DNA from: an uncultured virus (IMG/VR IMGVR_UViG_3300028734_000015)
Taxonomy: Duplodnaviria > Heunggongvirae > Uroviricota > Caudoviricetes
IMG/VR virus record: IMGVR_UViG_3300028734_000015
Strand: one strand, 5' to 3'
Length of the DNA: 31,512 nt
The translations under genes were made by a program, and so were the position numbers. Numbering within the stretch: the first letter of the stretch is position 1; the number at the start of each line of letters is the position of its first letter. The notes below the pieces were generated by a model that made no database searches, was not told the origin of the DNA, and worked only from the letters and a program-made list of their open reading frames with translations. Shown here one piece after another: positions 1-30,006 of this stretch.

Positions 1-446
1 AAAAGAATGCATTATCTATGATAGAGCATAATGTAAATCATTCTATGGTTAAAAACAATATACTTCCTGAGTCATTCAGTAGTAAGAATAGGATTGGAGC
101 ACAAGAGTATGGAGAAGCCGCATCAATGGCCGGTCAATATAATGGACTATATGCTAATGTAAAACCATCTAATATACTTACTTTTGATTTGAAAAACAAA
201 GAAATTATATCAAATATAGAAAGTGTAGTTGAGCCCACTGTAACTGATGTAGTTAATGAGCCAAATAAAGTAGAAGAGACTACATTCACAGTAGAGGATA
301 TGCCTAGTGATGGCATTGATAAAAAGCAAATAGAAACTATAAATGAAGGCTTTAAAAGGTCAGGATTAAAAGAAATGACAGAAGAACAATTTAATAGCAT
401 GGATAAAGACCTGCTAGAGTCACTTAAAGCCTGTTTTGGCGCATAA
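1..446 (+). CDS. 3' end of a large upstream protein (5'-truncated; possibly one of the big crAss-like virion cargo/RNAP-cluster proteins)
   Basis: The frame is open from the window edge (AAG AAT GCA TTA TCT ATG...). Acidic low-complexity C-terminus ends 10 nt before the next large gene. Confidence 0.6.
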   Translation, partial: KNALSMIEHNVNHSMVKNNILPESFSSKNRIGAQEYGEAASMAGQYNGLYANVKPSNILTFDLKNKEIISNIESVVEPTVTDVVNEPNKVEETTFTVEDMPSDGIDKKQIETINEGFKRSGLKEMTEEQFNSMDKDLLESLKACFGA

Positions 447-456
447 AATAATATAT

Positions 457-3400
457 ATGAAACATTGTGTTAATATACAATCAATTGCGTTTAAAACGCT
501 TGTAAATGAGTCTGAGACACACCCTATAATGCTTGCTGCAAAAATGGGTGTGTGGATGGATAGAAACAATACTGATGAGTGGCCAAATTTAGAGCAACTA
601 AACGAGTTAGGCAATTTAGATATGATAAGTCCAGTTGTCAGTAAATCTGGTTTCTATCCTAGTTTGCCAAATAAAAGTATTGATGACCTATATAATAAGA
701 ATTTATCGGTAATGCAAACTGCTGTAAATTCACTAAATAAGGAGTATTATAATAAGTTTATATCAAAGACAAAATTTAATCAATTAACTAGAAAGTATAA
801 TAAATTTGACAAATCAAACATAGAAGTATATATTGTAGATAATAAATCTGCAGATTTTATTAATCCTAGTGATGTTTCTGTTAGATTTAGAGTAAAAGAG
901 TCTTCAATTCAATTGGCATATGCCTCCGCAGTAAAGTCTAATAATGAAATTGCCAATACCCCATTTTCTGATTCTGAAAAGATAAGTATGGCTACTGATA
1001 AGCCTAAATCTATTATATCTCCAGAACAAACAGAGATAAATTTTGATGCTAAATTAAATTCATCTCAATTGGGAATAGCTAATCCAATGTCAAATTCTAC
1101 TATAAATGTAGTATCTAATATTGCCGATAGATTTAAAACTAGATTTGGAATTGGATATGAAGTAGTTTCACCAGAAGAAGCAGTTCGTTTATATAATGAA
1201 GGGTCTCCAGATAGTAAATACATAAAAGGTAACAATGGATTACTAGGATTCTATGATTCAGAAAAGAATATGTCTTATTTAGTATCAAATAGACTTAGTG
1301 CTAAAACTACTATGCACGAAATGTTTGGACATCCATTCTTAAATATGCTTAAGAACAACCCAGATTTAGTACATATATATAATCAGTTAGCATTAGAGGC
1401 AGTTGCTCATTCCGATGAACTGTCGGATATAACAAAATTATATAGTAACTATTCGTCTCCTGAAAAATTAGACGAACTAATAAACACTGTGTTAGAGGAT
1501 AAGTTTACTAGGAAGTTAAAAGAACTAAATAATATATCTACATCTGATGGAAAGTCTAAATCTAGATTTAGCAAATTACTTGATGCTATTAGTAATTATT
1601 TCAAACAATTTAGTAAATTCATTAATAAACTTTTCGATAAATCTAATCCAATAGAAGAAATCAGGCCTGATGCTACGATCGATAATCTTGCTGATTACTT
1701 GATATATGGAGATGGTAAATTAAACTTAATAGGGGGAGAGCAGGCAATAAGAACTGAGTCTGAAATAAGTAATCTATTATCTCATATCGATGCTAAACGT
1801 TTTGATGAGTTTAAACAAAGAAAAATAACACTTAATGAAGCTATTAAATTTAATGATGATTTAACTAGAGAATTAGTAAACCAAAATTTAGTTGATACCG
1901 GAATATATGATATAGATTTTACTAGGAAAAACTTACTATCTAAATTATCATATGTAGATTTTGATAATAAATCTATAGAATATTCTAGTGGGAATAAGAT
2001 GGCCACATTTGAATCTTATAATTTAGGGAATTCACTTTTAATCTCTAATATCTCCATAAAAGACAATACTAAAAATGTAGACATTCCATTTATTCTTAGA
2101 TCAATAGTTGAGTCTTTAGATAAATCAAATGCCAATGAGATTTTATTAAAAATAGATCCAAGTGATAATTTATACAAAGATATTCTTTCTGCATTTAAAG
2201 AAGATTCTATATATACTAAAAATGTCGATGGAGAACGATATGTTGCAATAAGTAAGAATAGCGAAACTATCTCAAATATGGCTTCTTTAGGTAGAAAGTC
2301 AAAATTGAGAGAGGCTGCTAAAATAGTAATACCTTCTGCAAAAGAAAAAGAATCTTCATTACCTACTCAGTTAGAAATAGCCACCAGTAATGCTGAGACA
2401 TTAATGCATAATATAAAAGTAGGATTAAATACAAATTTAAAAATACTTGAAAGGAATAAAAATACAGATGCACATACTTTTAATAGTATGAAAAATCTTA
2501 TAAATTCTATTGATAATGCAGATGCGGCTACAAGTGCTATCAGTTTCTTGAAATTTGCTGAGTTAGATGTTGCTAAAACTAGTTTAAAATTACTAGACAT
2601 ATCTAATGCAATGAAAAATAATGAGGATATAGCATCTTCTGATGTTATGTTTATTAATAGAGATTTTCTACCATTATACAAAAGCGTAATGGACTCTATT
2701 CGTACTATATATGAATCTAGAGATTTTGGAATATTTAATAGTCTACCAAAACACGTTGTAGATGACCTTGTTCATCAAGTATCTGGTATAAATAAGACTA
2801 TTGACGAAATGAGTAGGACAGTTAAGTCTGTTATAAACTATAATGCAACTAAAATATTTGCTAGTATAGCAGATGAAGCTAAATCTCCTACAATGAAGGA
2901 GGTTCTTAAGAAAAGTAATGAGGTCGATAGTGATTTATCATCTATGGGTGTATTCCTTGGTAGTTTGCAAAATAAAAGATCTGAGCACTTGAGGGCTTTG
3001 GATAAAATGATTGTAGATATACAGACTAATATAACTAAAATAGTAGCTACTGATGGTACTCTAAATGATTTAGCAAACTCTTTTACTAATATAAAAAGAA
3101 CTAATCCTATCGCTACTTATAATGAGTTTATGGAGCATGTTGATGGAAAAACTACTGGGTATATTACATCTGATCTATTAAGAGGAAAATTCAATAAAGA
3201 TATATCTGAATTTAGAAAGGCACTTGCTAAAAAGTACGGACTAACTAGTGATTATGCTACTCCATCTGACGCTAATGATTTTAAACAATACAATGAGGAG
3301 TTTGATAAATGGAAATCTGATCATTCAGAAAGAATGTTTTTGCCAGAATACTATAATGCTAAAAAAACTCTATCTTCTGAGGCCTCAGAAGCTCTAAATG

Positions 3401-6400
3401 ACGCAAAACAAAATATGGCTTCGTTTGGATTGGCGTTTAAGAATGCTGATGGAATTATAGATACTAGATTAATGACTCCGGCTGATCTTAACGCATATCA
3501 TGAACTTAGAATAATTAAGAATAATTTAGCATCTACGGTAAATCTCAATGGAGATGAGAAACTAAAAGGGAGTATTGAGAGGAATATAGCAGATGAAATA
3601 TCTGATTTCTACAAACGAATAAATAAGGGAATAAATTATAAAACTAAGATAGATCTTTTTAATGAAACATATAAAAATGTTGTGAAAGAGATGTCTCAGG
3701 ATGATGCAAATACATGGTTTAAAAATAATACTAAAGTTTCATTTACTCAAGAATGGTGGGATAAATTAACATCAATTGAAAAAAATCCACAACTACCAGC
3801 ATATGATGATTTGTATGAAAGAAGAAAAGCTATATTAAACACTTATAGAAACCCAGATACAATGGAAGTCCCTGCTGCTAGGTTAGAATCCATTGTAAAT
3901 AGTAATGGTGAGACTTTGGCTAATTTGGTAAAGAAAATTGATCTAGCTTTAAATAGTGCAAGAATTAAATATGGTCAAAAACCGGGATTGCAATTTAAAG
4001 ATATAGCAAAAATAGAACCTACTGATGAATATAAAAAGGCTTTAAGGGCTGCAGTGCAAGAAGCCTCTATGGGTAATACTAGAGCTGTTGCCGAGTTTGA
4101 TGAAAGGACTGCATATACAGATGGGAATGGATATAGACAATTATATTCTTTATGGACTAAATTATCTCCAAAAGATCAAAAAGATATATTTAATGAGCCT
4201 AATTCTCTATGGTCAGAAATGAGTCCAGATTCAGAGTATATAAATTCAAACTTTGATCCAGATTCGTCAGAAGAAGGTATGATTCCTAAAAGATCTTTAT
4301 ATGACAATAAACATGCATATGATCTAATTCAGAATTCTCCAGCAAAAAAAGATTTTCATGATAAGTTAATAGCTGGATATGCAAAAGCAAATGCTAATTA
4401 TGATTATATTCAACACCCATCTAAATATAGGTTAGCCCAGATACCTGGAAAGTTTCTAGATAGGGCAATACGTGGAGATAGATTTATGTCTGGATTTGCA
4501 TCGGCAATGAAAGATAAAGTAAAATGGAAGGCCTACGACAATATGGAAGGAGACTACGATACTAAAGGTGATTATAGGATAGATGGTAGTAAAGTAAGAT
4601 TTGTTCCTACTAAGTATCGCTCTATGCTAGAAGACAGAGATAGTATCTCTAGAGACGTATTAGGCGCATTTGCTGAGTACTATAAAGCCGCAGTAAATTT
4701 TAGAGAAATGTCTAAGCATTCAAATGACATTGATTTATTACTCGAATCCATAAAGAATCTATCCGTAAGAGATACTAGTAAAAAGGAGATAAAGGGTCCA
4801 GGACAAAGTAATATATATAACAGGGCTTCTAACTTTGTATCTAATACTGTATATGGAGATCAGATGGCTAATCAATATAATCTAAAGATACTTAGTAATA
4901 CTAGATCTATATCTATTGCAAAGCCAGTAAGAGATTTCATTAATTATGTAAGAAAGTTAATGCTTTCTGGAAATTTATTCTCTATAGTTGGTAATTTTTC
5001 TGCATCTGCGATCAATCTAAAGACCGAAGCTACGTGTGGTATATGGTTGAACAATGGAGGTCTATTAAAGGGCATGAGAGAGCTTACAATGTCTTTACCG
5101 AGCCTTATCGCTAGAGACAATGCTTCTTTCTCAAACAATAAACTTATATCCTTTATGAGGGCGTTTGAGGTTACTAAATCTCAACATAGAGACATGCAAA
5201 ATCTGCATGGATTCTCTCCAGTAAAGAACTTACTTTCTAATTTTCATTACGGTCCATATACTGCTGGGGATTTGGTAGTTAAAGGTCCAATGATGGTTGG
5301 AGTTCTTAGTAACTTTAGACCATTTGAAGGTAAATTTTACTCTAGAGAGGAATTCATAACAGAGAGGTTCCCTGGTAAAAGATCTGAAGGAGAATTGATA
5401 TTCGATTCTATTGAGGGTAATCTATATGATGCATTCAAAGTGGTTGATGGAAACCTTAAAATAGACCCTAAATATGCATCAATAATGAATGAAAAGACAT
5501 GGAATTATGTTGCAAACATAGTACATGATCTTGGAAGTAAATTAGACGGTACTTTGACTCAGGCTGATAAAGGTAAATTACATACTGATGCATTTGCTTC
5601 TGCTTTATTCTTAAATAGAGGGTGGATGCAGGTTGCTGCAGAGCAAAGATTTGCTACTAAGAAATATAATTATAGGAAACAACAAATGGCATCAGGTACT
5701 TTAATGACTCCTGGAGCGTCTGCTAAGATTATGATGAGTTTTTTAGCAGAGAAATTGACTGAAATGTCTAAATTTAATTTAACGCATTTAGGTAAAATGA
5801 GTCATATGCAAGATAAATACGAAGCAAATGACATATATAACTTCAGAAAAACACTTGGAGATATATCTAAATTAATATTGGTAGCTGCTGCCACATTGTT
5901 TGCCAAATCATTTGTAGGAAGTTCTGATGATGATAAAAAAAGATCTATAGAACAGTTTATTTTTACTCTATTAATGCGAACGGAAATGGAGTTAGGATCA
6001 AGTATGTCTCCTGCTGATGCATTCGGATTAATACAGTCTCCCACAACAGCTCAAGGGCCTATAACTGAGTTAAAAGAGGTATCTGATGGATTCTTTGATG
6101 GTACATTATTTGATCAAGTTCAAGGTGGTAGATATATGTACTATAAGAAATGGCAAAAGTCATTAATTAAATTAACTCCAGGGTATAAAAACTACTTTGA
6201 AAACTTTATTAAACCCGATTTAAAGGCACGTGAGTACTTTATGAGTAAGAATATGATTGGAATATATAACTTGACTCAGGGAGTTGCTAACATGTTTGAT
6301 AGTACGCACGATAATGCTGATAAGATTAAACAATTAGAGAAACAGAAGTTCGAGAATAAAAGTGTCATAGATAAAGGGGAAAATTCATATAAGCCACTTT

Positions 6401-6525
6401 TCTATCATGAAACTAAGGAAGATAAACTTAGACAGAGAGTCAATGCCAGAAAAAAAGCCAGAGGTTCTAAAATTCTGAATAGAAAAATAAAAATGTTGAA
6501 TAGAGACAGGAATTCCGGGTTGTGA
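457..6525 (+). CDS. Very large (~2020 aa) crAss-like virion cargo-type protein with a zincin-like metalloprotease motif
   Basis: 2029-aa ORF; the ATG at 457 (MKHCVN...) is preferred over the TTG at 436. Contains TMHEMFGHPFL (HExxxH-type) followed by ...LDELI. Size, last position in the + strand block and convergence with a replication module match crAss-like genome organisation. Confidence 0.7.
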   Translation: MKHCVNIQSIAFKTLVNESETHPIMLAAKMGVWMDRNNTDEWPNLEQLNELGNLDMISPVVSKSGFYPSLPNKSIDDLYNKNLSVMQTAVNSLNKEYYNKFISKTKFNQLTRKYNKFDKSNIEVYIVDNKSADFINPSDVSVRFRVKESSIQLAYASAVKSNNEIANTPFSDSEKISMATDKPKSIISPEQTEINFDAKLNSSQLGIANPMSNSTINVVSNIADRFKTRFGIGYEVVSPEEAVRLYNEGSPDSKYIKGNNGLLGFYDSEKNMSYLVSNRLSAKTTMHEMFGHPFLNMLKNNPDLVHIYNQLALEAVAHSDELSDITKLYSNYSSPEKLDELINTVLEDKFTRKLKELNNISTSDGKSKSRFSKLLDAISNYFKQFSKFINKLFDKSNPIEEIRPDATIDNLADYLIYGDGKLNLIGGEQAIRTESEISNLLSHIDAKRFDEFKQRKITLNEAIKFNDDLTRELVNQNLVDTGIYDIDFTRKNLLSKLSYVDFDNKSIEYSSGNKMATFESYNLGNSLLISNISIKDNTKNVDIPFILRSIVESLDKSNANEILLKIDPSDNLYKDILSAFKEDSIYTKNVDGERYVAISKNSETISNMASLGRKSKLREAAKIVIPSAKEKESSLPTQLEIATSNAETLMHNIKVGLNTNLKILERNKNTDAHTFNSMKNLINSIDNADAATSAISFLKFAELDVAKTSLKLLDISNAMKNNEDIASSDVMFINRDFLPLYKSVMDSIRTIYESRDFGIFNSLPKHVVDDLVHQVSGINKTIDEMSRTVKSVINYNATKIFASIADEAKSPTMKEVLKKSNEVDSDLSSMGVFLGSLQNKRSEHLRALDKMIVDIQTNITKIVATDGTLNDLANSFTNIKRTNPIATYNEFMEHVDGKTTGYITSDLLRGKFNKDISEFRKALAKKYGLTSDYATPSDANDFKQYNEEFDKWKSDHSERMFLPEYYNAKKTLSSEASEALNDAKQNMASFGLAFKNADGIIDTRLMTPADLNAYHELRIIKNNLASTVNLNGDEKLKGSIERNIADEISDFYKRINKGINYKTKIDLFNETYKNVVKEMSQDDANTWFKNNTKVSFTQEWWDKLTSIEKNPQLPAYDDLYERRKAILNTYRNPDTMEVPAARLESIVNSNGETLANLVKKIDLALNSARIKYGQKPGLQFKDIAKIEPTDEYKKALRAAVQEASMGNTRAVAEFDERTAYTDGNGYRQLYSLWTKLSPKDQKDIFNEPNSLWSEMSPDSEYINSNFDPDSSEEGMIPKRSLYDNKHAYDLIQNSPAKKDFHDKLIAGYAKANANYDYIQHPSKYRLAQIPGKFLDRAIRGDRFMSGFASAMKDKVKWKAYDNMEGDYDTKGDYRIDGSKVRFVPTKYRSMLEDRDSISRDVLGAFAEYYKAAVNFREMSKHSNDIDLLLESIKNLSVRDTSKKEIKGPGQSNIYNRASNFVSNTVYGDQMANQYNLKILSNTRSISIAKPVRDFINYVRKLMLSGNLFSIVGNFSASAINLKTEATCGIWLNNGGLLKGMRELTMSLPSLIARDNASFSNNKLISFMRAFEVTKSQHRDMQNLHGFSPVKNLLSNFHYGPYTAGDLVVKGPMMVGVLSNFRPFEGKFYSREEFITERFPGKRSEGELIFDSIEGNLYDAFKVVDGNLKIDPKYASIMNEKTWNYVANIVHDLGSKLDGTLTQADKGKLHTDAFASALFLNRGWMQVAAEQRFATKKYNYRKQQMASGTLMTPGASAKIMMSFLAEKLTEMSKFNLTHLGKMSHMQDKYEANDIYNFRKTLGDISKLILVAAATLFAKSFVGSSDDDKKRSIEQFIFTLLMRTEMELGSSMSPADAFGLIQSPTTAQGPITELKEVSDGFFDGTLFDQVQGGRYMYYKKWQKSLIKLTPGYKNYFENFIKPDLKAREYFMSKNMIGIYNLTQGVANMFDSTHDNADKIKQLEKQKFENKSVIDKGENSYKPLFYHETKEDKLRQRVNARKKARGSKILNRKIKMLNRDRNSGL

Positions 6526-24632: not shown

Positions 24633-24656
24633 TTTAAGTATTATTATTAATATTTG

Positions 24657-24730
24657 TGATCCAAGCAGGATTCAAACCTGCGACCCACACCTTAGAAGGG
24701 TGTTGCTCTATTCAACTGAGCTATTAGACC
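24657..24730 (-). tRNA. tRNA-Arg(UCU)
   Basis: GGTCTAA/TTGGATC acceptor; GCTC/GAGC D-stem; ACACC-CT TCT AA-GGTGT anticodon arm; GCAGG-TTTGAAT-CCTGC T-arm; CCA not encoded. Confidence 0.9.
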
Positions 24731-25244: not shown

Positions 25245-25766
25245 TTATTGTTTTGCTAATATTTGATCAAGTGATATAGGAATTCCATTTAATCTATCCC
25301 AGCTTGCGCAGAAATATTTAGGATCCTCTATTATTTGTACCTTAACCTCCATCGGTGTATATATTAACTGTTTAATTGTTTTTTCGTGCAAGTGTGCATG
25401 AATATTCATTTTAAACCTTGACATTTGACTTTTTTCAGCCGGAATATGTGTTAATAGATATCCTTTGTAGTTATATGCTCCTCCAATACCTTCTACGTAT
25501 TTTAACAATTCTAATGCGTCTTTTGGTAAATCATGGTTTCCATTTATTGCGATTTTCCTTCCAATTAATCTATCTAATAGATAATAGTAAGTTGGCTTTT
25601 CAAATGTAATGTCGCCTAATAGGTAAACTAATGATCTACTGTGTAAAACTGAATTATATTGTTTTATAATATAATCGTGGTATTCATCTAGATCATCAAA
25701 TCCTCTTAGCTTTGCAATTGCTTCATGCCCTAAATGCAAATCTCCAATGAATCCTACATCAATCAT
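25245..25766 (-). CDS. Calcineurin-like metallophosphoesterase
   Basis: GDLHLGH, LLGDI, NGNHD, THIP and IHAHLH motifs; start MIDVGF at 25766 overlaps the stop of the upstream small ORF. Confidence 0.88.
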   Translation of the reverse strand: MIDVGFIGDLHLGHEAIAKLRGFDDLDEYHDYIIKQYNSVLHSRSLVYLLGDITFEKPTYYYLLDRLIGRKIAINGNHDLPKDALELLKYVEGIGGAYNYKGYLLTHIPAEKSQMSRFKMNIHAHLHEKTIKQLIYTPMEVKVQIIEDPKYFCASWDRLNGIPISLDQILAKQ

Positions 25767-25893
25767 TTTGTCTGAAGAATTTCCACCATACTTTTGCTTT
25801 TTTATTTCTATTTCTAAAAATAACGTAATTTGAATCATCTGCAATTGCCGGCGATTCTTCTAGTTTTCTTGTTATTATTTTTTTGCTTTCCAT
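25759..25893 (-). CDS. Small protein (44 aa) missing from the ORF track
   Basis: MESKKIITRKLEESPAIADDSNYVIFRNRNKKAKVWWKFFRQND*; starts 1 nt after the upstream stop and ends in an ATGATTGA overlap with the phosphoesterase. Confidence 0.6.
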   Translation of the reverse strand: MESKKIITRKLEESPAIADDSNYVIFRNRNKKAKVWWKFFRQND

Positions 25894-25894
25894 A

Positions 25895-26482
25895 TTATTC
25901 AAATGGCAGTTGTGATGTTTCAAATTCGCAATGGGATTCCCAGTTAGTCATCTTTTCAAGGATAATTTCAGTTCCTTTCATTTTAATCATTTCTATTATT
26001 AATTTTACTTCTCTTTTTTGGTCTTTAGTCGACGTCCAATCTTTTAATAGCATACTTTCGAGTATCTTTAAGTTTATGTTCAGATTTTGTTCTGATACTA
26101 TGTTCATTCGAATATCTGTTAATTTTTTGATTATCCAATCTGGTGTATTTATTACATTTGATTGAAATATTATTGGATTTGTGAAATAAAATTGTTTCTT
26201 TGATTGTGTATTATTGAACATCTGTATCATTATTTCTCGATCTGATTTGAATGGTATGTCGCTAGAGAAAATTAAAACATCATATTGCGGACCTAAATCT
26301 ATCCGCTCCATTACTGGTTCGCTATTTATAGTCTTTAATTTTCCTTTTTCTATTTTTTGTTCTAGTTTATACGCATGTCTTTTCTCGAATCCTTCTAACC
26401 TGCCAATGAACACAAAATCAAACCATACTAATGCATAGTAATTCCCTATGATTAGAGTTGATGTGTCTATTAAGCTTGTCAT
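25895..26482 (-). CDS. Hypothetical protein
   Basis: 195-aa ORF with an ATGA overlap with the upstream gene. Confidence 0.75.
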   Translation of the reverse strand: MTSLIDTSTLIIGNYYALVWFDFVFIGRLEGFEKRHAYKLEQKIEKGKLKTINSEPVMERIDLGPQYDVLIFSSDIPFKSDREIMIQMFNNTQSKKQFYFTNPIIFQSNVINTPDWIIKKLTDIRMNIVSEQNLNINLKILESMLLKDWTSTKDQKREVKLIIEMIKMKGTEIILEKMTNWESHCEFETSQLPFE

Positions 26483-26769
26483 ACCTTTATTTCTGTTTGC
26501 TCTTCTATTATTTTGCCTGTGTGGATTTCCTTAGCAGCTCTCAATCTGTAATCTCTTACGATTGTTTTAGCGTTCTGGATGTGTCCTGCAAAAAGAGTTT
26601 GTTGTGGAATGGATGTCTTACGACTAATACTGCAGTTTATTGCATGCATGTCAATCCCTGCTACTTTTGTTGGGTACATTTTGATTCCATTTCGTACTAT
26701 TTTTAGTAGCGAAGTATTCCATGGTTTTGTTTTTGGTGCCCAAACGTTTGATTTCTTTTTTTTCTCCAT
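26479..26769 (-). CDS. Basic hypothetical protein
   Basis: 96-aa ORF carrying the 17-nt repeated leader. Confidence 0.7.
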   Translation of the reverse strand: MEKKKKSNVWAPKTKPWNTSLLKIVRNGIKMYPTKVAGIDMHAINCSISRKTSIPQQTLFAGHIQNAKTIVRDYRLRAAKEIHTGKIIEEQTEIKV

Positions 26770-26811
26770 CTTTGATAGTGGTTTTAAGTAAGTATTTATT
26801 GTTTGTTAATT

Positions 26812-26996
26812 GGCTCCCACGACGTTGATCAAACACTATAGGTTGGTTATTCTACCTCCTATATCGGGGAGTGAACTTTACTCTTAGGCTACAAGGCCTA
26901 CATAGTTAGTCACATTGATTGAATTGTTGCATTTTATTGCGTTTATATCAGCCTATTCATTCCGAGCTATTGTAGCTGTCAAATCCAGGCAGGCCC
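26812..26996 (-). ncRNA. ssrA: tmRNA coding piece (5' acceptor strand plus tag reading frame) of a permuted two-piece tmRNA; 3' end approximate
   Basis: Starts GGGCCTG-CCTGGATTTGAC-AGC (tmRNA 5' consensus, no D-stem); tag frame 26931-26884 reads CNNSINVTNYVGLVA*. Confidence 0.85.
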
Positions 26997-27103
26997 GTTT
27001 CATTGTAAATAAGGCGTTTTAAGGGTACTTTTTTTCGTGGATGAATAATGTATCCAATCTTATCTTGTATTAGCTTAAAACGCCTTAAAGTGGACCTGGA
27101 GGG

Positions 27104-27854
27104 CGAAAATATTTTTAATCTATGTAAACATTTCTGCTCCACCTTACGTTATATGATTATATATAATATATTATGGAAAAACAATGTTTATTTTGTAACA
27201 AAACTTTTAATGCAGATCCCAGAGAGCTTAGGAGATGTCATGCCATTTATTGTAGCATTTCATGTTCTATTAAGCATCGAAATCAATTAATACCCCTACG
27301 CAAATGTAAATGTATTGTTTGCTTAAGCGAGTTTGAAAGTAAATCAACTAAAGCTAAATATTGTTGCAAAAAATGCAAAAGTATTCATTATAGGAGATTA
27401 ATTTCAACCGAGGTGAATGGTACTAGAAGAATTCAATCTATATTGTTGACTTTCCCTTGTGCAAATTGCGGCTGGGATTTATCTTCAAGAGACGTTCATC
27501 ATATAGTTCCATCTTGTTTTGGTGGCAAAAATGAATTAACTAATTTAATTACACTTTGTCCTAATTGCCATAGAATGGCTCATAGAAACCTCCTTTTGGA
27601 GGACAAGTTAAATGAACTTGTTTATTTTCGGACTATATCATCATCCGGCATTTCTGCTTAGGATGTTGGGCGCTTATCTGGTTATTAAGGAAATTCTATT
27701 CCTCCAGTAGTCTCTGCACTTTCAAGCGGTATACCGCAAGCTTAGCTCAGGATTGGCATGTAAAAAATGTTCATTTCTGAGCTTTTTTATTTAGCGTTCC
27801 CTGAATTCACCCAATTTTCGATATGTATTACTACATAAAGGACCCCTATAGTTG
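27104..27854 (-). mobile_element. Group I intron (IC3-like core) in the tmRNA T-loop
   Basis: 5' exon ends in U with P1 GACU^C/GGGUC; P AATTCAGGGAA (27807-27797); Q AATCCTGAGC (27754-27745); R GCAGAGACTA (27717-27708); S GATATAGTCC (27639-27630); P3 TTGGGTG/CGCCCAA; terminal omega-G at 27104. Confidence 0.9.
27173..27661 (+). CDS. HNH endonuclease (probable homing endonuclease) with N-terminal Cys-rich repeats, antisense within the intron
   Basis: CANCG...DVHHIVP...GGKNELTNLITLCPNCHRMAH; two CxxC...YCxxxC units; the only credible + strand gene in the - strand block. Confidence 0.9.
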   Translation: MEKQCLFCNKTFNADPRELRRCHAIYCSISCSIKHRNQLIPLRKCKCIVCLSEFESKSTKAKYCCKKCKSIHYRRLISTEVNGTRRIQSILLTFPCANCGWDLSSRDVHHIVPSCFGGKNELTNLITLCPNCHRMAHRNLLLEDKLNELVYFRTISSSGISA

Positions 27855-27907
27855 AGTCGAACCCTCGTCCAAACTACTAGTCTAATGACTTAGCAGCTGA
27901 TATGAGT

Positions 27908-28390
27908 TTAATATAGTATTTCGATTGTTTTTCGGCAATCTATATCCCATATTGTGAATTCGTGTCTGAAGAATCCTTGCTCTTCTGATACGTCAATTCT
28001 TATTCTGTCATCTGTCATGTAATTTAATACAACTCTTTTCCCTCGAAGTTCTTCACGTTTTGGGAGTTGTTTTTTTACGACAGTGTTATACATTTCAGTT
28101 GGAATACCTTTAGGCATATCCCCTTTTAAATAAAGGTAGATTTTTTTAAGATCATTCGTGTCTCTTTTGTGGAGTAGATCGATCATTAGTGAATGCTTTT
28201 GTTTGTAATTCAACTTTCTTAAAGATATATTATGCAATTTTGGTGTTATTTCCCAGTGATCTGATATGAACTTTTTAAGTTGGTCTGAATTAATTTTGGT
28301 AAATAAGTCTTTTACTGCATCGTATACTTCTGTTTTTGTTTTAGCCTCTCCAATCAAGGATATGGTAATTTCTTCTTGTTCTTTTGTCAT
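27908..28390 (-). CDS. Hypothetical protein
   Basis: 160-aa ORF ending immediately before the tmRNA acceptor piece. Confidence 0.75.
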   Translation of the reverse strand: MTKEQEEITISLIGEAKTKTEVYDAVKDLFTKINSDQLKKFISDHWEITPKLHNISLRKLNYKQKHSLMIDLLHKRDTNDLKKIYLYLKGDMPKGIPTEMYNTVVKKQLPKREELRGKRVVLNYMTDDRIRIDVSEEQGFFRHEFTIWDIDCRKTIEILY

Positions 28391-28531
28391 TATGACGATT
28401 ATTATTGATTAATAATGTTTATTAAAAGTAAAAATAAAGGTACTTTAGGTTCACGACATTGTCACGATTTAATTTCCCTTTATAGGCTATTGGTTAAACC
28501 AATAACTCCACCAATCGGCGTTAGCCAATAT

Positions 28532-28645
28532 CTATATTCGATCTTTCTTACTAAATGGAGCCATTTTCCTTTTTAATTCTGGTTCGTCAGCTCCATCTTT
28601 TCTGAAATCGTTTTGCGGTTTTCCTGCTTTTAGAGATTTACTCAT
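28532..28645 (-). CDS. Small protein (37 aa) missing from the ORF track
   Basis: MSKSLKAGKPQNDFRKDGADEPELKGKWLHLVKKDRI* with the genome-typical leader TTTAAATCAATTAAAAG. Confidence 0.5.
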   Translation of the reverse strand: MSKSLKAGKPQNDFRKDGADEPELKRKMAPFSKKDRI

Positions 28646-28687
28646 CTTTTAATTGATTTAAATGATTTATAATACAGTTAATAATTG

Positions 28688-28761
28688 TAGCCAATATCGG
28701 AATTGAACCGATGACCTCTAGATTTTACAAACCTAGTGCTCTCCCACTGAGCTAATTGGCT
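28688..28761 (-). tRNA. Atypical tRNA: anticodon GUA (Tyr) on a 6-bp stem, or Thr(UGU) with a 9-nt loop
   Basis: AGCCAAT/ATTGGCT acceptor; GCTC-AGTGGGA-GAGC; CTAGG-TTTGTAAAA-TCTAG; short variable loop AGGTC; ATCGG-TTCAATT-CCGAT. Confidence 0.8.
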
Positions 28762-29136
28762 TCCACCACTTTCGATGGATTTTTGGTGATTTTGTCGACT
28801 AATTGGAGAGCCTGTCAATAGACAAAATCTCCTAATTATTTACCAGTAAATATAAAAGTTGTCGACAACTAATATATTATGATATTTACCTAACAACTGA
28901 TGCCATATCATGGGCGATCCTAATTTCTATTTGCGGTAGAGGAGGATAATCATTACATATGATAGAGTTTGTTGTTCTTCTTATATAATTGATTTTCGGT
29001 TTACAAAACCGTTTTAATGTACTTTTTGTATTTATTAATCTTTTAAGTCAACCAAACTTAGCATTAAGAGTATATTTTGCGCTTTTTCAGCAAATATTAT
29101 CACAATGGGGATCGTATAACTTTTTTGATTTTTTAT

Positions 29137-30006
29137 TTAGTACTGTTTAACTGGTAAATAATTCTGCCCTCCTGAAATTTCACCTAATATCCGAAGATAC
29201 TTTTCATTTGGGGTTTTATTTTTGTATTTTGCACATTCAGTTATGTGTATTGCTACAAGTATCTGAAGCACTAATGTTTTATATTGCAGTGTGGGCGTTC
29301 CCATTCTCCATTCAATTGTATTGAACTCAGATTGCGATTTTATATATGAATAAAATATTTGAACTGCTTGGTTGTATACACTTTCAATTGCTCTTTCTGA
29401 GTGGCCTGTTAGGTTTGCTAGTATGTCATTCACTGCATAGCCTATTTTTGTTATTTCACTGCCCCATATGCCTTGTGTTTCTCCCAATACATCTGTACAG
29501 TCTACATGATAATGCATTCCGCTTTTTTCGGCTATTTTGCAATTGTTATTTTTCATCCATTCTAATAGTATGTAAAGAGCTTTCAGTCCTTTCATTCCAT
29601 TTATTCTTAGACGATTTTCTCTTAGTCTTCCAAGGCATACTCCTGGTCTCTCTCCAGAAGTTCCTCCTCCATCCCATCCTGAATTAAATGAGACTGCTCC
29701 ATTTGCCAATAATTGCTTTTCTAATTGCTGACAATTGCATCCATCATATTCTATTTCTATTCCGATGTTAATGGATTTGTAAATTCTTTTCTTTTTTCCA
29801 GGTCTTTTTTGAAATCTACCTTTATCTTTATTGTACATTCTGTATATTTCTCCTGGTTTTTGTATTGCTACGTATTTGTAAGGCCATATCTTATCAAGGA
29901 ATTGGTCCATCATTTTAATGTTTTTTTGTTCTATTCTGAACATTTTGAATGCTATTGTGCTTTCTGATAAAGCTTCAATGCATGATTTTTGCCAATTTGT
30001 TGACAT
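29137..30006 (-). CDS. Putative amidoligase (COOH-NH2 ligase-type) enzyme
   Basis: IGIEIE, SGMHYHV and NTIEWR motifs, characteristic of the putative amidoligase family. Confidence 0.65.
   Translation of the reverse strand: MSTNWQKSCIEALSESTIAFKMFRIEQKNIKMMDQFLDKIWPYKYVAIQKPGEIYRMYNKDKGRFQKRPGKKKRIYKSINIGIEIEYDGCNCQQLEKQLLANGAVSFNSGWDGGGTSGERPGVCLGRLRENRLRINGMKGLKALYILLEWMKNNNCKIAEKSGMHYHVDCTDVLGETQGIWGSEITKIGYAVNDILANLTGHSERAIESVYNQAVQIFYSYIKSQSEFNTIEWRMGTPTLQYKTLVLQILVAIHITECAKYKNKTPNEKYLRILGEISGGQNYLPVKQY

Follow-up and report, generated by a model that had tools for sequence, protein, structure and literature searches.

Our analysis of a 31,512-nt stretch of DNA from an uncultured virus (IMG/VR record IMGVR_UViG_3300028734_000015; the whole stretch is hereafter called the window) points with high probability to a phage-encoded, circularly permuted transfer-messenger RNA (tmRNA) gene of a Suoliviridae-type crAss-like phage, the T-loop of which is split by a mobile group I intron of 751 nt. 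Computed support for this reading comes from the intron fold, the intron boundaries, the tmRNA fold that appears after excision, a presence/absence polymorphism among near-identical alleles and one allele in which the nuclease gene has decayed. An intron-split permuted tmRNA is not unique to the window, being recurrent in public crAss-like phage sequence. An earlier note on this DNA, made from its letters without database searches, had placed a group I intron at 27104..27854 in the T-loop of a permuted tmRNA, and this placement was borne out by a covariance-model search of the kind that it had suggested (RF00028, 75.8 bits, over the gathering score), by ARAGORN after excision, by covariation and by empty sites in related phages. 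All tmRNA and intron features described here lie on the minus strand, and the HNH open reading frame (ORF) within the intron lies on the plus strand.

The match of the Rfam group I intron model RF00028 to the window runs from 27864 to 27611 (minus strand), with a gathering score of 50 to be compared with the 75.8 bits obtained (E 9.2e-18), and it covers model positions 1-253 of 253, i.e., the full length of the model without truncation; the introns of the relatives described below score 65.7-96.7 bits on the same model. The elements that the earlier note had read off the sequence (P1 with its U-G pair, P3, P4, P7 as GACTA/TAGTC, P8 as CATCC/GGATG and the omega-G) were all located, at the coordinates below (a caret marks a boundary).

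27104..27854, minus strand: group I intron, 751 nt (RF00028 match of 75.8 bits, excision test, like boundaries in relatives, an empty-site allele)
27589..27858, minus strand: ribozyme core (Rfam alignment, covariation, RNAalifold)
27858..27841, minus strand: P1, GACT^C 27858..27854 with GGGTC 27845..27841
27837..27822, minus strand: P2, with a GUAA loop
27814..27808 with 27672..27666, minus strand: P3, TTGGGTG with CGCCCAA
27805..27799 with 27752..27746, minus strand: P4, TTCAGGG with TCCTGAG
27737..27726, minus strand: P6a
27712..27708 with a strand inside 27641..27631, minus strand: P7, GACTA with TAGTC
27707..27678, minus strand: P7.1-type hairpin of 30 nt between P7 and P3' (covariation)
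27665..27642, minus strand: P8, CATCC...GGATG
27621..27603, minus strand: P9 (compensatory changes in the alignment)
27602..27589, minus strand: P9.1, a 5-bp stem with a 4-nt loop (compensatory changes in the alignment)
27104..27172, minus strand: 3' tail of the intron past the antisense ORF, with AACGTAAGGTGGAG at 27150..27137 and the end ...ATATTTTCG with the omega-G (sequence, comparison of intron ends)
27173..27661, plus strand: HNH homing-endonuclease-type ORF, 162 aa (Pfam, PHROG, relatives)

The minus strand reads ...GGAC GAGGG TTCGACT^CAACTATAGGGGTCC... across the 5' splice site (27870..27840) and ...ATATTTTCG^CCCTC CAGGTCC A C TT... across the 3' splice site (27112..27088), so that T27855 is the last base of the 5' exon, C27854 the first of the intron, G27104 the last of the intron (the omega-G, immediately ahead of the 3' exon) and C27103 the first of the 3' exon. 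P1 places T27855, the -1 U, opposite G27844 as a U-G wobble. Joining T27855 to C27103 yields a T-stem of GAGGG (27866..27862) and CCCTC (27103..27099) around a 7-nt loop TTCGACT (27861..27855) of the TTCRANY type, i.e., the restored T-arm TTCGACT^CCCTC that the earlier note had foreseen. ARAGORN detected no tmRNA in the unspliced DNA (only a tRNA-Arg(tct) at 24656..24730 and a tRNA-Tyr(gta) at 28687..28761), and after in-silico removal of 27854..27104 it called a tmRNA labelled 'Permuted', with the 3' tRNA half (27879..27855 plus 27103..27090) ahead of the 5' half that starts at 26996. Random 751-nt deletions within 25500..29500 gave an ARAGORN tmRNA call in 0/200 cases. Shifted boundary pairs were still scored in 36/81 cases, ARAGORN tolerating a loop-length error of about 2 nt, and it is therefore the 7-nt loop, the -1 U/omega-G rule and the empty sites of relatives that fix the exact boundary. 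A C/C ambiguity permits a slide of 1 nt, and the -1 U together with the omega-G fit only the position given here.

Covariation was counted in the window core and 14 homologous sequences out of tmRNA genes and protein genes of phages (n=15), on an explicit structure of 53 pairs in 11 helices that comprised P1, P2, P3, P4, P5, P6, P6a, the P7 pseudoknot, the P7.1-type hairpin and P8. In this structure 92.6% of cells were paired and 28/53 pairs showed compensatory changes. None of 500 shuffles reached this level, a count that overstates significance because the sequences are kin; the fairer control, in which partners were slid by 1-3 columns, left 37-47% paired. P7 is invariant in 4/5 of its pairs and is therefore uninformative for covariation. 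An independent RNAalifold prediction recovered P3, P4, P5, P6 and P8, with compensatory changes in 16/31 pairs, and P9 and P9.1 showed compensatory differences among the window and four related introns (loci L001, L002, L119 and L114). The two helices of the P7.1-type hairpin carried compensatory changes in 2/4 and 4/5 pairs.

This hairpin bears on the subgroup of the intron. In the Michel-Westhof scheme the core of IC3 introns is compact and lacks additional helices between P7 and P3', and a P7.1-type element is a mark of IA-type introns that is not known from classical IC3 tRNA introns. The covarying 30-nt hairpin between P7 and P3' thus argues against IC3 for the window intron, which looks IA-like, a candidate assignment judged from the P7.1-type element. 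The likeness to IC3 tRNA-type introns suggested in the earlier note is consequently not supported as to the subgroup and is partly right as to the core motif, which the window shares with introns in apparent tRNA 5' halves of bacterial metagenome-assembled genomes (MAGs). Those introns in apparent tRNA 5' halves that were checked among the bacterial hits described below also have an insert of 33-36 nt between P7 and P3'.

The exons that flank the intron, and the rest of the tmRNA gene, are arranged on the minus strand as follows.

27855..27879, minus strand: last part of the 5' exon, i.e., of the acceptor piece (3' tRNA domain found by ARAGORN after excision, sequence, T-stem covariation over 32 relatives)
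27090..27103, minus strand: start of the 3' exon, with CCCTC 27103..27099, CAGGTCC 27098..27092, discriminator A27091 and C27090
26997..27089, minus strand: intervening segment, a 94-nt hairpin whose basal stem has 14 bp (27087..27074 paired to 27023..27010)
26793..26996, minus strand: coding piece, with the acceptor 5' strand GGGCCTG at 26996 and TGGATTTGAC as D-loop analogue; its 3' end is approximate (ARAGORN)
26940..26884, minus strand: tag frame, AIKCNNSINVTNYVGLVA followed by a stop

The acceptor piece begins somewhere past the stop of the ORF at 27908..28390, and the listed part of it contains GUAGUU (the proposed 3' strand of P2a) and GGAC (27870..27867) ahead of the T-stem and loop. 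The spliced gene has a 7-bp acceptor stem (GGGCCTG/CAGGTCC) with the G3-U70 pair. CCA is not encoded, as TT follows C27090. The tag frame has a resume codon and a hydrophobic C-terminus. ARAGORN labelled the tag 'not identified', meaning that it is absent from ARAGORN's list, and the resume context is ATAAAC^GCA in the window and ATAAAC^GGC in relatives. The intervening hairpin folds at -20.8 kcal/mol (z -2.53), a value reached by 2/200 shuffles. A sigma-70 promoter scan returned 7 sites against 6.7 expected, with a model that leaves Bacteroidota-type promoters outside.

Stems and identity elements were compared in a table of 32 tmRNA genes, 18 intron-bearing and 14 intron-less. The T-stem occurs in 9 sequence variants, every one fully complementary, and the acceptor stem likewise in 9 variants, every one paired. 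G3-U70 and the discriminator A are present directly in 31/32 rows, and in the remaining gene (L119) GGGCCTG lies 20 nt further along; CCA is encoded in a single gene (1/32). On RF04321, the Rfam model of permuted tmRNA (cut-off 47 bits), 6/7 intron-less relatives score at or above the cut-off (59.9, 59.4, 50.7, 49.2, 48.9 and 48.6), the seventh (L038) scores 43.4 and the phage genome cr125_1 scores 46.3; partial matches to the betaproteobacterial model reach 41 bits against a cut-off of 84. A RefSeq annotation 'transfer-messenger RNA, SsrA' underlies the match in 5/13 matching phage records, cr125_1 among them. Scanning IMG/VR with a T-arm pattern gave 109 loci, the T-arm being uninterrupted in all of them, and ARAGORN called a tmRNA in 69; permuted intron-less tmRNAs were found on contigs of ~83-102 kb, with tags like those of the crAss-like set (e.g., GNTSYVTDYTRLVA, GNVNNIVDYTCVA and GNFYVTDYTRIAA).

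The ORF within the intron encodes a protein with an HNH domain (Pfam PF01844, E 2.2e-10, residues 96-138; PHROG 1271, HNH endonuclease, E 2.7e-21) that is 67% identical, without gaps, to the product of the intron ORF of phage cr4_1; its likeness to the nearest solved protein chains is confined to the HNH motif. The ORF is antisense to the ribozyme in 17/18 tmRNA introns examined, the 18th (L125) being a deletion allele. Over its final 73 nt (27589..27661) it is complementary to the 3' strand of P8, J8/7, the 3' strand of P7, P9 and P9.1, and the conserved C-terminal '...TISS...' is encoded by the complement of the J8/7-P7 block. At the other end of the ORF, an AACGTA-GTGGAG block (minus strand; 27137..27150 in the window) is conserved in the window, L001 and L114 and lies ~30-40 nt upstream of the HNH start codon; it could be a promoter or regulatory site of the nuclease gene, or a relic of an ancestral intron 3' end. 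Bacterial introns at T-loop subsite 8 end with AACGTATTG. Three candidate helices that would bridge the ORF (one between UUUCU, past P9.1, and AGAAA of the tail, one between UCUAUG and CAUAGA, and one between GUGGAG and the P9.1 strand) were not adopted, as they are not convincingly conserved in the window, L001 and L114.

Relatives were sought with a 21-nt P3-P4 motif, which retrieved 38 IMG/VR loci. In-silico excision followed by ARAGORN resolved a permuted tmRNA in 15/38 of these, and also in the GenBank genomes cr4_1 and cr118_1 and in one MAG contig. The introns interrupt the T-loop at three subsites: after nucleotide 7 in the window, L001, L002, L119, L134, L143 and L193; after nucleotide 6 in 11 loci, where the intron measures 705 nt (333 nt in L125); and after nucleotide 1 in L120 (831 nt). 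In the subsite numbering that we derive from the legend of Fig. 2 in PMC11915505 and from the -1 U at each subsite, an insertion after nucleotide 7 corresponds to position 8. Across the three subsites, a -1 T and a final G were present in 18/18 resolved tmRNA introns, and the internal guide sequence of each related intron fits its own 5' exon.

Empty sites also bear on the boundaries. The tmRNA gene of cr4_1 (L001) and that of the intron-less locus L052 are collinear and share 99.1% of positions in the 222 nt upstream and 95.7% in the 326 nt downstream, and exactly the 754-nt intron is absent from L052, save for a C/C ambiguity of 1 nt. A single tmRNA lineage includes L119 (intron at subsite 8), L120 (subsite 2) and the intron-less L153, L155 and L157. 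In L125 a deletion of 372 nt has removed most of the nuclease gene and has left the core and boundaries in place. Presence/absence of the intron together with nuclease decay is the pattern that would be expected of a homing element. The degenerate 21-mer search for intron-less alleles had retrieved 8 loci (L151-L158), among which L151 proved to be the same contig as L119 and L152 a standard tmRNA by ARAGORN. ARAGORN made no call in L154, L156 and L158; L154 and L158 are long standard tmRNA genes (517 and 549 nt; RF00023, 96.4 and 77.3 bits) on large phage contigs, have no group I match in Rfam and, in the case of L154, adjoin a twister-P1-like match below cut-off.

Three further phage loci deserve mention. 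In cr6_1 (L003, NC_055894.1; 2520-2545 and 3400-3425) RF00028 scores 96.7 bits directly after ...GGACACGGGTT, at a different T-loop subsite; no boundary pair with a -1 U and an omega-G rebuilds the 7-nt loop there. A canonical 7-nt loop would need an intron that ends in A (...TTAAGA^CGACTCCCGT), the omega-G would give an 8-nt loop, and ARAGORN resolves neither reading. In cr56_1 (L209, NC_055890.1; 1148-1904) an antisense 'endonuclease' coding sequence lies directly upstream of a tmRNA coding piece, with no RF00028 or RF04321 match at E <=0.01; an intron that has degenerated, or a nuclease gene inserted without an intron, may explain this locus. L193 (MSGT01000071.1) is a contig of 100,100 bp in a Sphaerochaeta sp. 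MAG with a cr4_1-type intron-split permuted tmRNA and identical boundaries; by its size and content this contig is probably the genome of a crAss-like phage that was placed in a bacterial MAG during binning.

The remaining 23/38 IMG/VR loci were not resolved as tmRNA-hosted, and their flanks suggest protein genes. In such loci (e.g., L121, L124, L130, L137, L141 and L149, within L113-L150) close relatives of the core split protein genes of phages at a conserved motif of the ...AIAPTGSIGILAG type that resembles a ribonucleotide-reductase-type site. In bacteria, a core-motif scan of GTDB genomes gave 49 loci. Two of them in Bacteroidota MAGs (L159 and L200) are standard tmRNA genes with nuclease-less introns of 253-264 nt at the subsite of the window and with its P1 design, and a Saprospiraceae MAG (L179) has the same junction by sequence, without ARAGORN resolution; the likeness of the window intron to those of L159 and L200 is confined to short core blocks. 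Many other GTDB hits (L160-L207; e.g., L160, L161, L166, L172 and L177) split apparent tRNA 5' halves or anticodon loops, and others have a sense-strand HNH-like frame (...CxNCHxExH...) that runs up to P2, suggesting that the intron family uses both orientations of the nuclease gene, in different hosts.

Intron-form tmRNA genes are said to have been first described by Williams in 2002. A 2025 tmRNA database paper (PMC11915505) distinguishes standard, intron and permuted gene forms and counts 883 unique intron-form sequences, each interrupted within the T-loop, mainly at position 7 and also at 2, 3 and 8. As given there, position 8 occurs only in Saprospiraceae, position 3 only in Bacteroidia and position 2 in Anaerolineae and one Myxococcota; 23 LAGLIDADG genes are reported among 844 introns, and the phage tmRNAs number 79. 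The paper also describes T-loop introns in one-piece tmRNA genes, predominantly of Bacillota, in line with what the earlier note had said of some Firmicutes, and its Table 3 has no class that combines permutation with an intron (PMC11915505). The window intron resembles these bacterial introns in its tmRNA host gene, its T-loop target, the -1 U-G pair in P1, the omega-G and the rebuilding of the loop. It differs, going by the forms tabulated in PMC11915505, in that their host gene is of the standard one-piece form and the window gene is permuted and phage-borne, and in that their endonuclease genes were detected as LAGLIDADG and that of the window is HNH and antisense; with a T-loop intron and without a one-piece host gene, the window gene falls outside the tmRNA_intron class of that database.

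Permuted tmRNA genes (RF04321, the Caulobacter type, phage Melnitz) share with the window gene the order of acceptor piece, intervening segment and coding piece, the G3-U70 pair, the discriminator A and the tag frame. In PMC9004378, ARAGORN suggested a two-piece form for 53/133 unique structures of phage tmRNA, and marine or aquatic phages account for 50 of these; the window phage is a gut crAss-like phage and not a marine one, and its acceptor piece is split by an intron. ARAGORN and Rfam miss the window gene because the intron splits this piece.

The likenesses of the nuclease gene lie elsewhere. The Bacillus phage SPO1 has a group I intron with the HNH nicking endonuclease I-HmuI, and the known genes of this type are co-oriented with the intron and reside in protein-coding host genes. 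The window intron resembles them in being phage-borne, in having an HNH gene in a peripheral region and in a homing-type presence/absence polymorphism, and it differs in that its ORF is antisense and ends in the complement of the catalytic core and in that its host gene encodes a structural RNA. Antisense homing endonuclease genes are described for group I introns of nuclear rDNA in PMC9548176; these introns likewise have the nuclease opposite the ribozyme strand and a non-coding RNA as host gene, but they are eukaryotic, their enzymes are of the His-Cys box type, the genes contain spliceosomal introns and the sequences are unrelated. As to endonuclease genes that are antisense to bacterial or phage introns, a 2014 review (PMC3984707) contains neither 'antisense' nor 'opposite strand' nor 'opposite orientation', and PMC2988022 uses 'antisense' for segD only, two papers that are no proof of absence. 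Among crAss-like phages, those of the Delta group have been reported to contain group I introns in their core genes, in a paper whose main text does not contain 'tmRNA' (Yutin et al., 2021; PMC7886860). We found no published intron inside a permuted tmRNA gene, in a search that left outside its range the per-taxon forms of the 79 phage sequences of PMC11915505 and Williams 2002. The earlier note, which knew of no example that combines intron, permutation and phage location, agrees in this with the literature searched; in the public sequences of crAss-like phages the combination is nevertheless common and unannotated. The composite is a combination of known parts and an expected consequence of a conserved homing target, with no new mechanism.

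On this basis, maturation of the phage tmRNA would start from a single precursor that comprises, in order, the acceptor piece up to the T-loop, the intron, the 3' strands of the T-stem and acceptor stem, the intervening hairpin and the coding piece. The intron would fold through P1-P9.1, an external guanosine would attack after U27855 (paired with G27844 in P1), omega-G27104 would dock and exon ligation would close the T-arm (GAGGG-TTCGACT^CCCTC). Host RNase P is predicted to cleave 5' of G26996 and host 3' processing to trim after A27091, and CCA would be added to the acceptor piece, which is needed because only C27090 is encoded. The two RNAs would be held together by the acceptor stem GGGCCUG/CAGGUCC with its G3-U70 pair and be charged with alanine, and with host SmpB they would tag stalled nascent chains with (A)AIKCNNSINVTNYVGLVA. 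The HNH protein, made from its own antisense transcript, would cut or nick intron-less tmRNA alleles of co-infecting phages at the T-arm DNA, and repair would copy the intron into the cut allele (homing).

A bolder proposal, which we consider distinctly doubtful as a whole, has two parts. The intron would gate maturation of the phage tmRNA, with the antisense HNH RNA (complementary to P8-P9.1) opposing or timing splicing, and introns would shuttle between Bacteroidota chromosomes and phages via the T-arm target, identical in one-piece host and two-piece phage tmRNA genes, with the phage gene as a reservoir that seeded the rare subsites 2 and 8 of bacteria. If the gating were true, ribosome rescue and tagging would be switched on at a defined stage of infection.

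Several points weigh against the reading of the locus as an intron-split tmRNA gene that is spliced and used. Self-splicing, processing, charging, the role in infection and the endonuclease target are predictions from sequence, and the kinship within the covariation set has been mentioned above. The antisense ORF (~420 nt) separates the core from the 69-nt tail with the omega-G, and no helix bridging it was convincingly conserved when the window, L001 and L114 were compared. P10 in its standard register consists of 2 bp (G27845-C27103 and G27846-C27102); the 4-bp P10 (AGGG with CCCT) put forward in the earlier note had to be given up, being out of register because one G already pairs with U-1. 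Folding of the precursor could be impeded by pairing with an antisense transcript. In the unspliced window RF04321 scores 15.2 bits (E 3.4) and RF00023 6.8 bits, far under the cut-offs, as is expected of a split gene. No SmpB (PF01668) was found among the 28 window ORFs scanned, and function would therefore depend on the host protein. A 25-mer from the coding piece had 0 exact matches in IMG/VR and thus revealed no allele without the intron in the tmRNA lineage to which the window belongs; empty sites are known from sister lineages (L052; L153, L155 and L157) and not from that of the window, and the intron-less alleles that the earlier note had asked for in related phages exist to this extent.

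The same points can be read in other ways. The intron might be removed non-autonomously, if splicing in vivo needed a protein cofactor (from host or phage) or a certain stage of infection, and tmRNA maturation would then be conditional. Proteins assist many group I introns that could not otherwise splice in vivo, and a 751-nt intron with a large peripheral insertion and a weak P10, the folding of which an antisense HNH transcript could modulate, would be a candidate for such help; we nevertheless regard this as unlikely, as there is no sign of a maturase (the sole intron ORF is the opposite-strand HNH nuclease) and the nuclease-deleted allele L125, at 333 nt, retains core and boundaries.

Alternatively, the gene may be inactivated, with a ribozyme that splices poorly or not at all and a tmRNA that is a decaying pseudogene kept by a selfish element. 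The 2-bp P10, the lack of a clear path of the 3' tail to the core and the overlap of the nuclease gene with 73 nt of the core on the opposite strand, which constrains both, would be compatible with this, and the antisense 'endonuclease' of cr56_1 (L209) beside a coding piece, without an RF00028 match, indicates that degenerate states exist. Set against this are the untruncated full-length model match, the core helices, all of which are intact and covary, and the exons, which retain all tmRNA identity elements, a complete tag frame and the resume context of the family. The -1 U and omega-G in 18/18 introns at three subsites are, moreover, predicted by selection for precise splicing and not by a dead gene, and we judge inactivation to be quite unlikely. 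That the intron is flanked by T-arm halves and tmRNA-like pieces by chance, or that the locus is an assembly chimera, is hardly credible and, as far as sequence can show, refuted: ARAGORN's acceptance of 36/81 shifted boundary pairs would leave room for it, but the 0/200 random deletions, the RF00028 E-value of 9e-18, the existence of empty-site alleles and the recurrence of the architecture across different assemblies (15/38 IMG/VR loci, 2 GenBank genomes, 1 MAG contig) all speak against it. The intron-split, permuted phage tmRNA gene thus remains the reading that we prefer.

The genomic context is that of a crAss-like phage. At the DNA level the window is matched best by crAss-like phages of the Suoliviridae that come from human faeces (cr4_1, cr118_1 and cr6_1), and its phage genes include a primase, a DnaB-type helicase, a Sak4-like protein and a sigma factor; the replication genes and the sigma factor share the strand of the tmRNA and are syntenic with those of cr4_1, cr118_1 and cr56_1. 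At the homologous place, the GenBank records of cr4_1, cr118_1 and cr6_1 annotate only an antisense 'hypothetical protein' or 'endonuclease'. An ORF of 2029 aa in the window (436..6525, plus strand) has no Pfam or PHROG match and, by its position and size, may encode a giant crAss-like virion or RNA-polymerase-type protein. Other structured RNAs stand beside the tmRNA genes of relatives, namely RAGATH-9 (8 loci), RAGATH-22, RAGATH-20, RAGATH-7-assoc and a Hatchet ribozyme, all above Rfam cut-offs (L001, 1018-1179; L003, 1086-1231 and 2368-2489; L114, 818-983; L069, 3064-3206; and L052, L125, L208 and L209). The RAGATH-7-assoc element of cr6_1 ends 8 nt ahead of the acceptor piece, and in the window no RAGATH- or Hatchet-type RNA was found at Rfam gathering thresholds.

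Among human gut viruses the crAss-like phages rank, according to the literature cited, as the most abundant, and our data indicate that members of the Suoliviridae carry their own two-piece tmRNA, which in many genomes is hidden from standard annotation. The gene form, permuted with an intron added, is untabulated in the 2025 tmRNA database, and with it T-loop subsites 2, 7 and 8 are recorded for phages as well. The HNH gene is consistently antisense, with its end written on the complement of the ribozyme core. In practical terms, these findings argue for tmRNA searches on intron-masked phage sequence, and the intron-plus, intron-minus and nuclease-deleted alleles form a natural set for tests of homing into a structural RNA gene.

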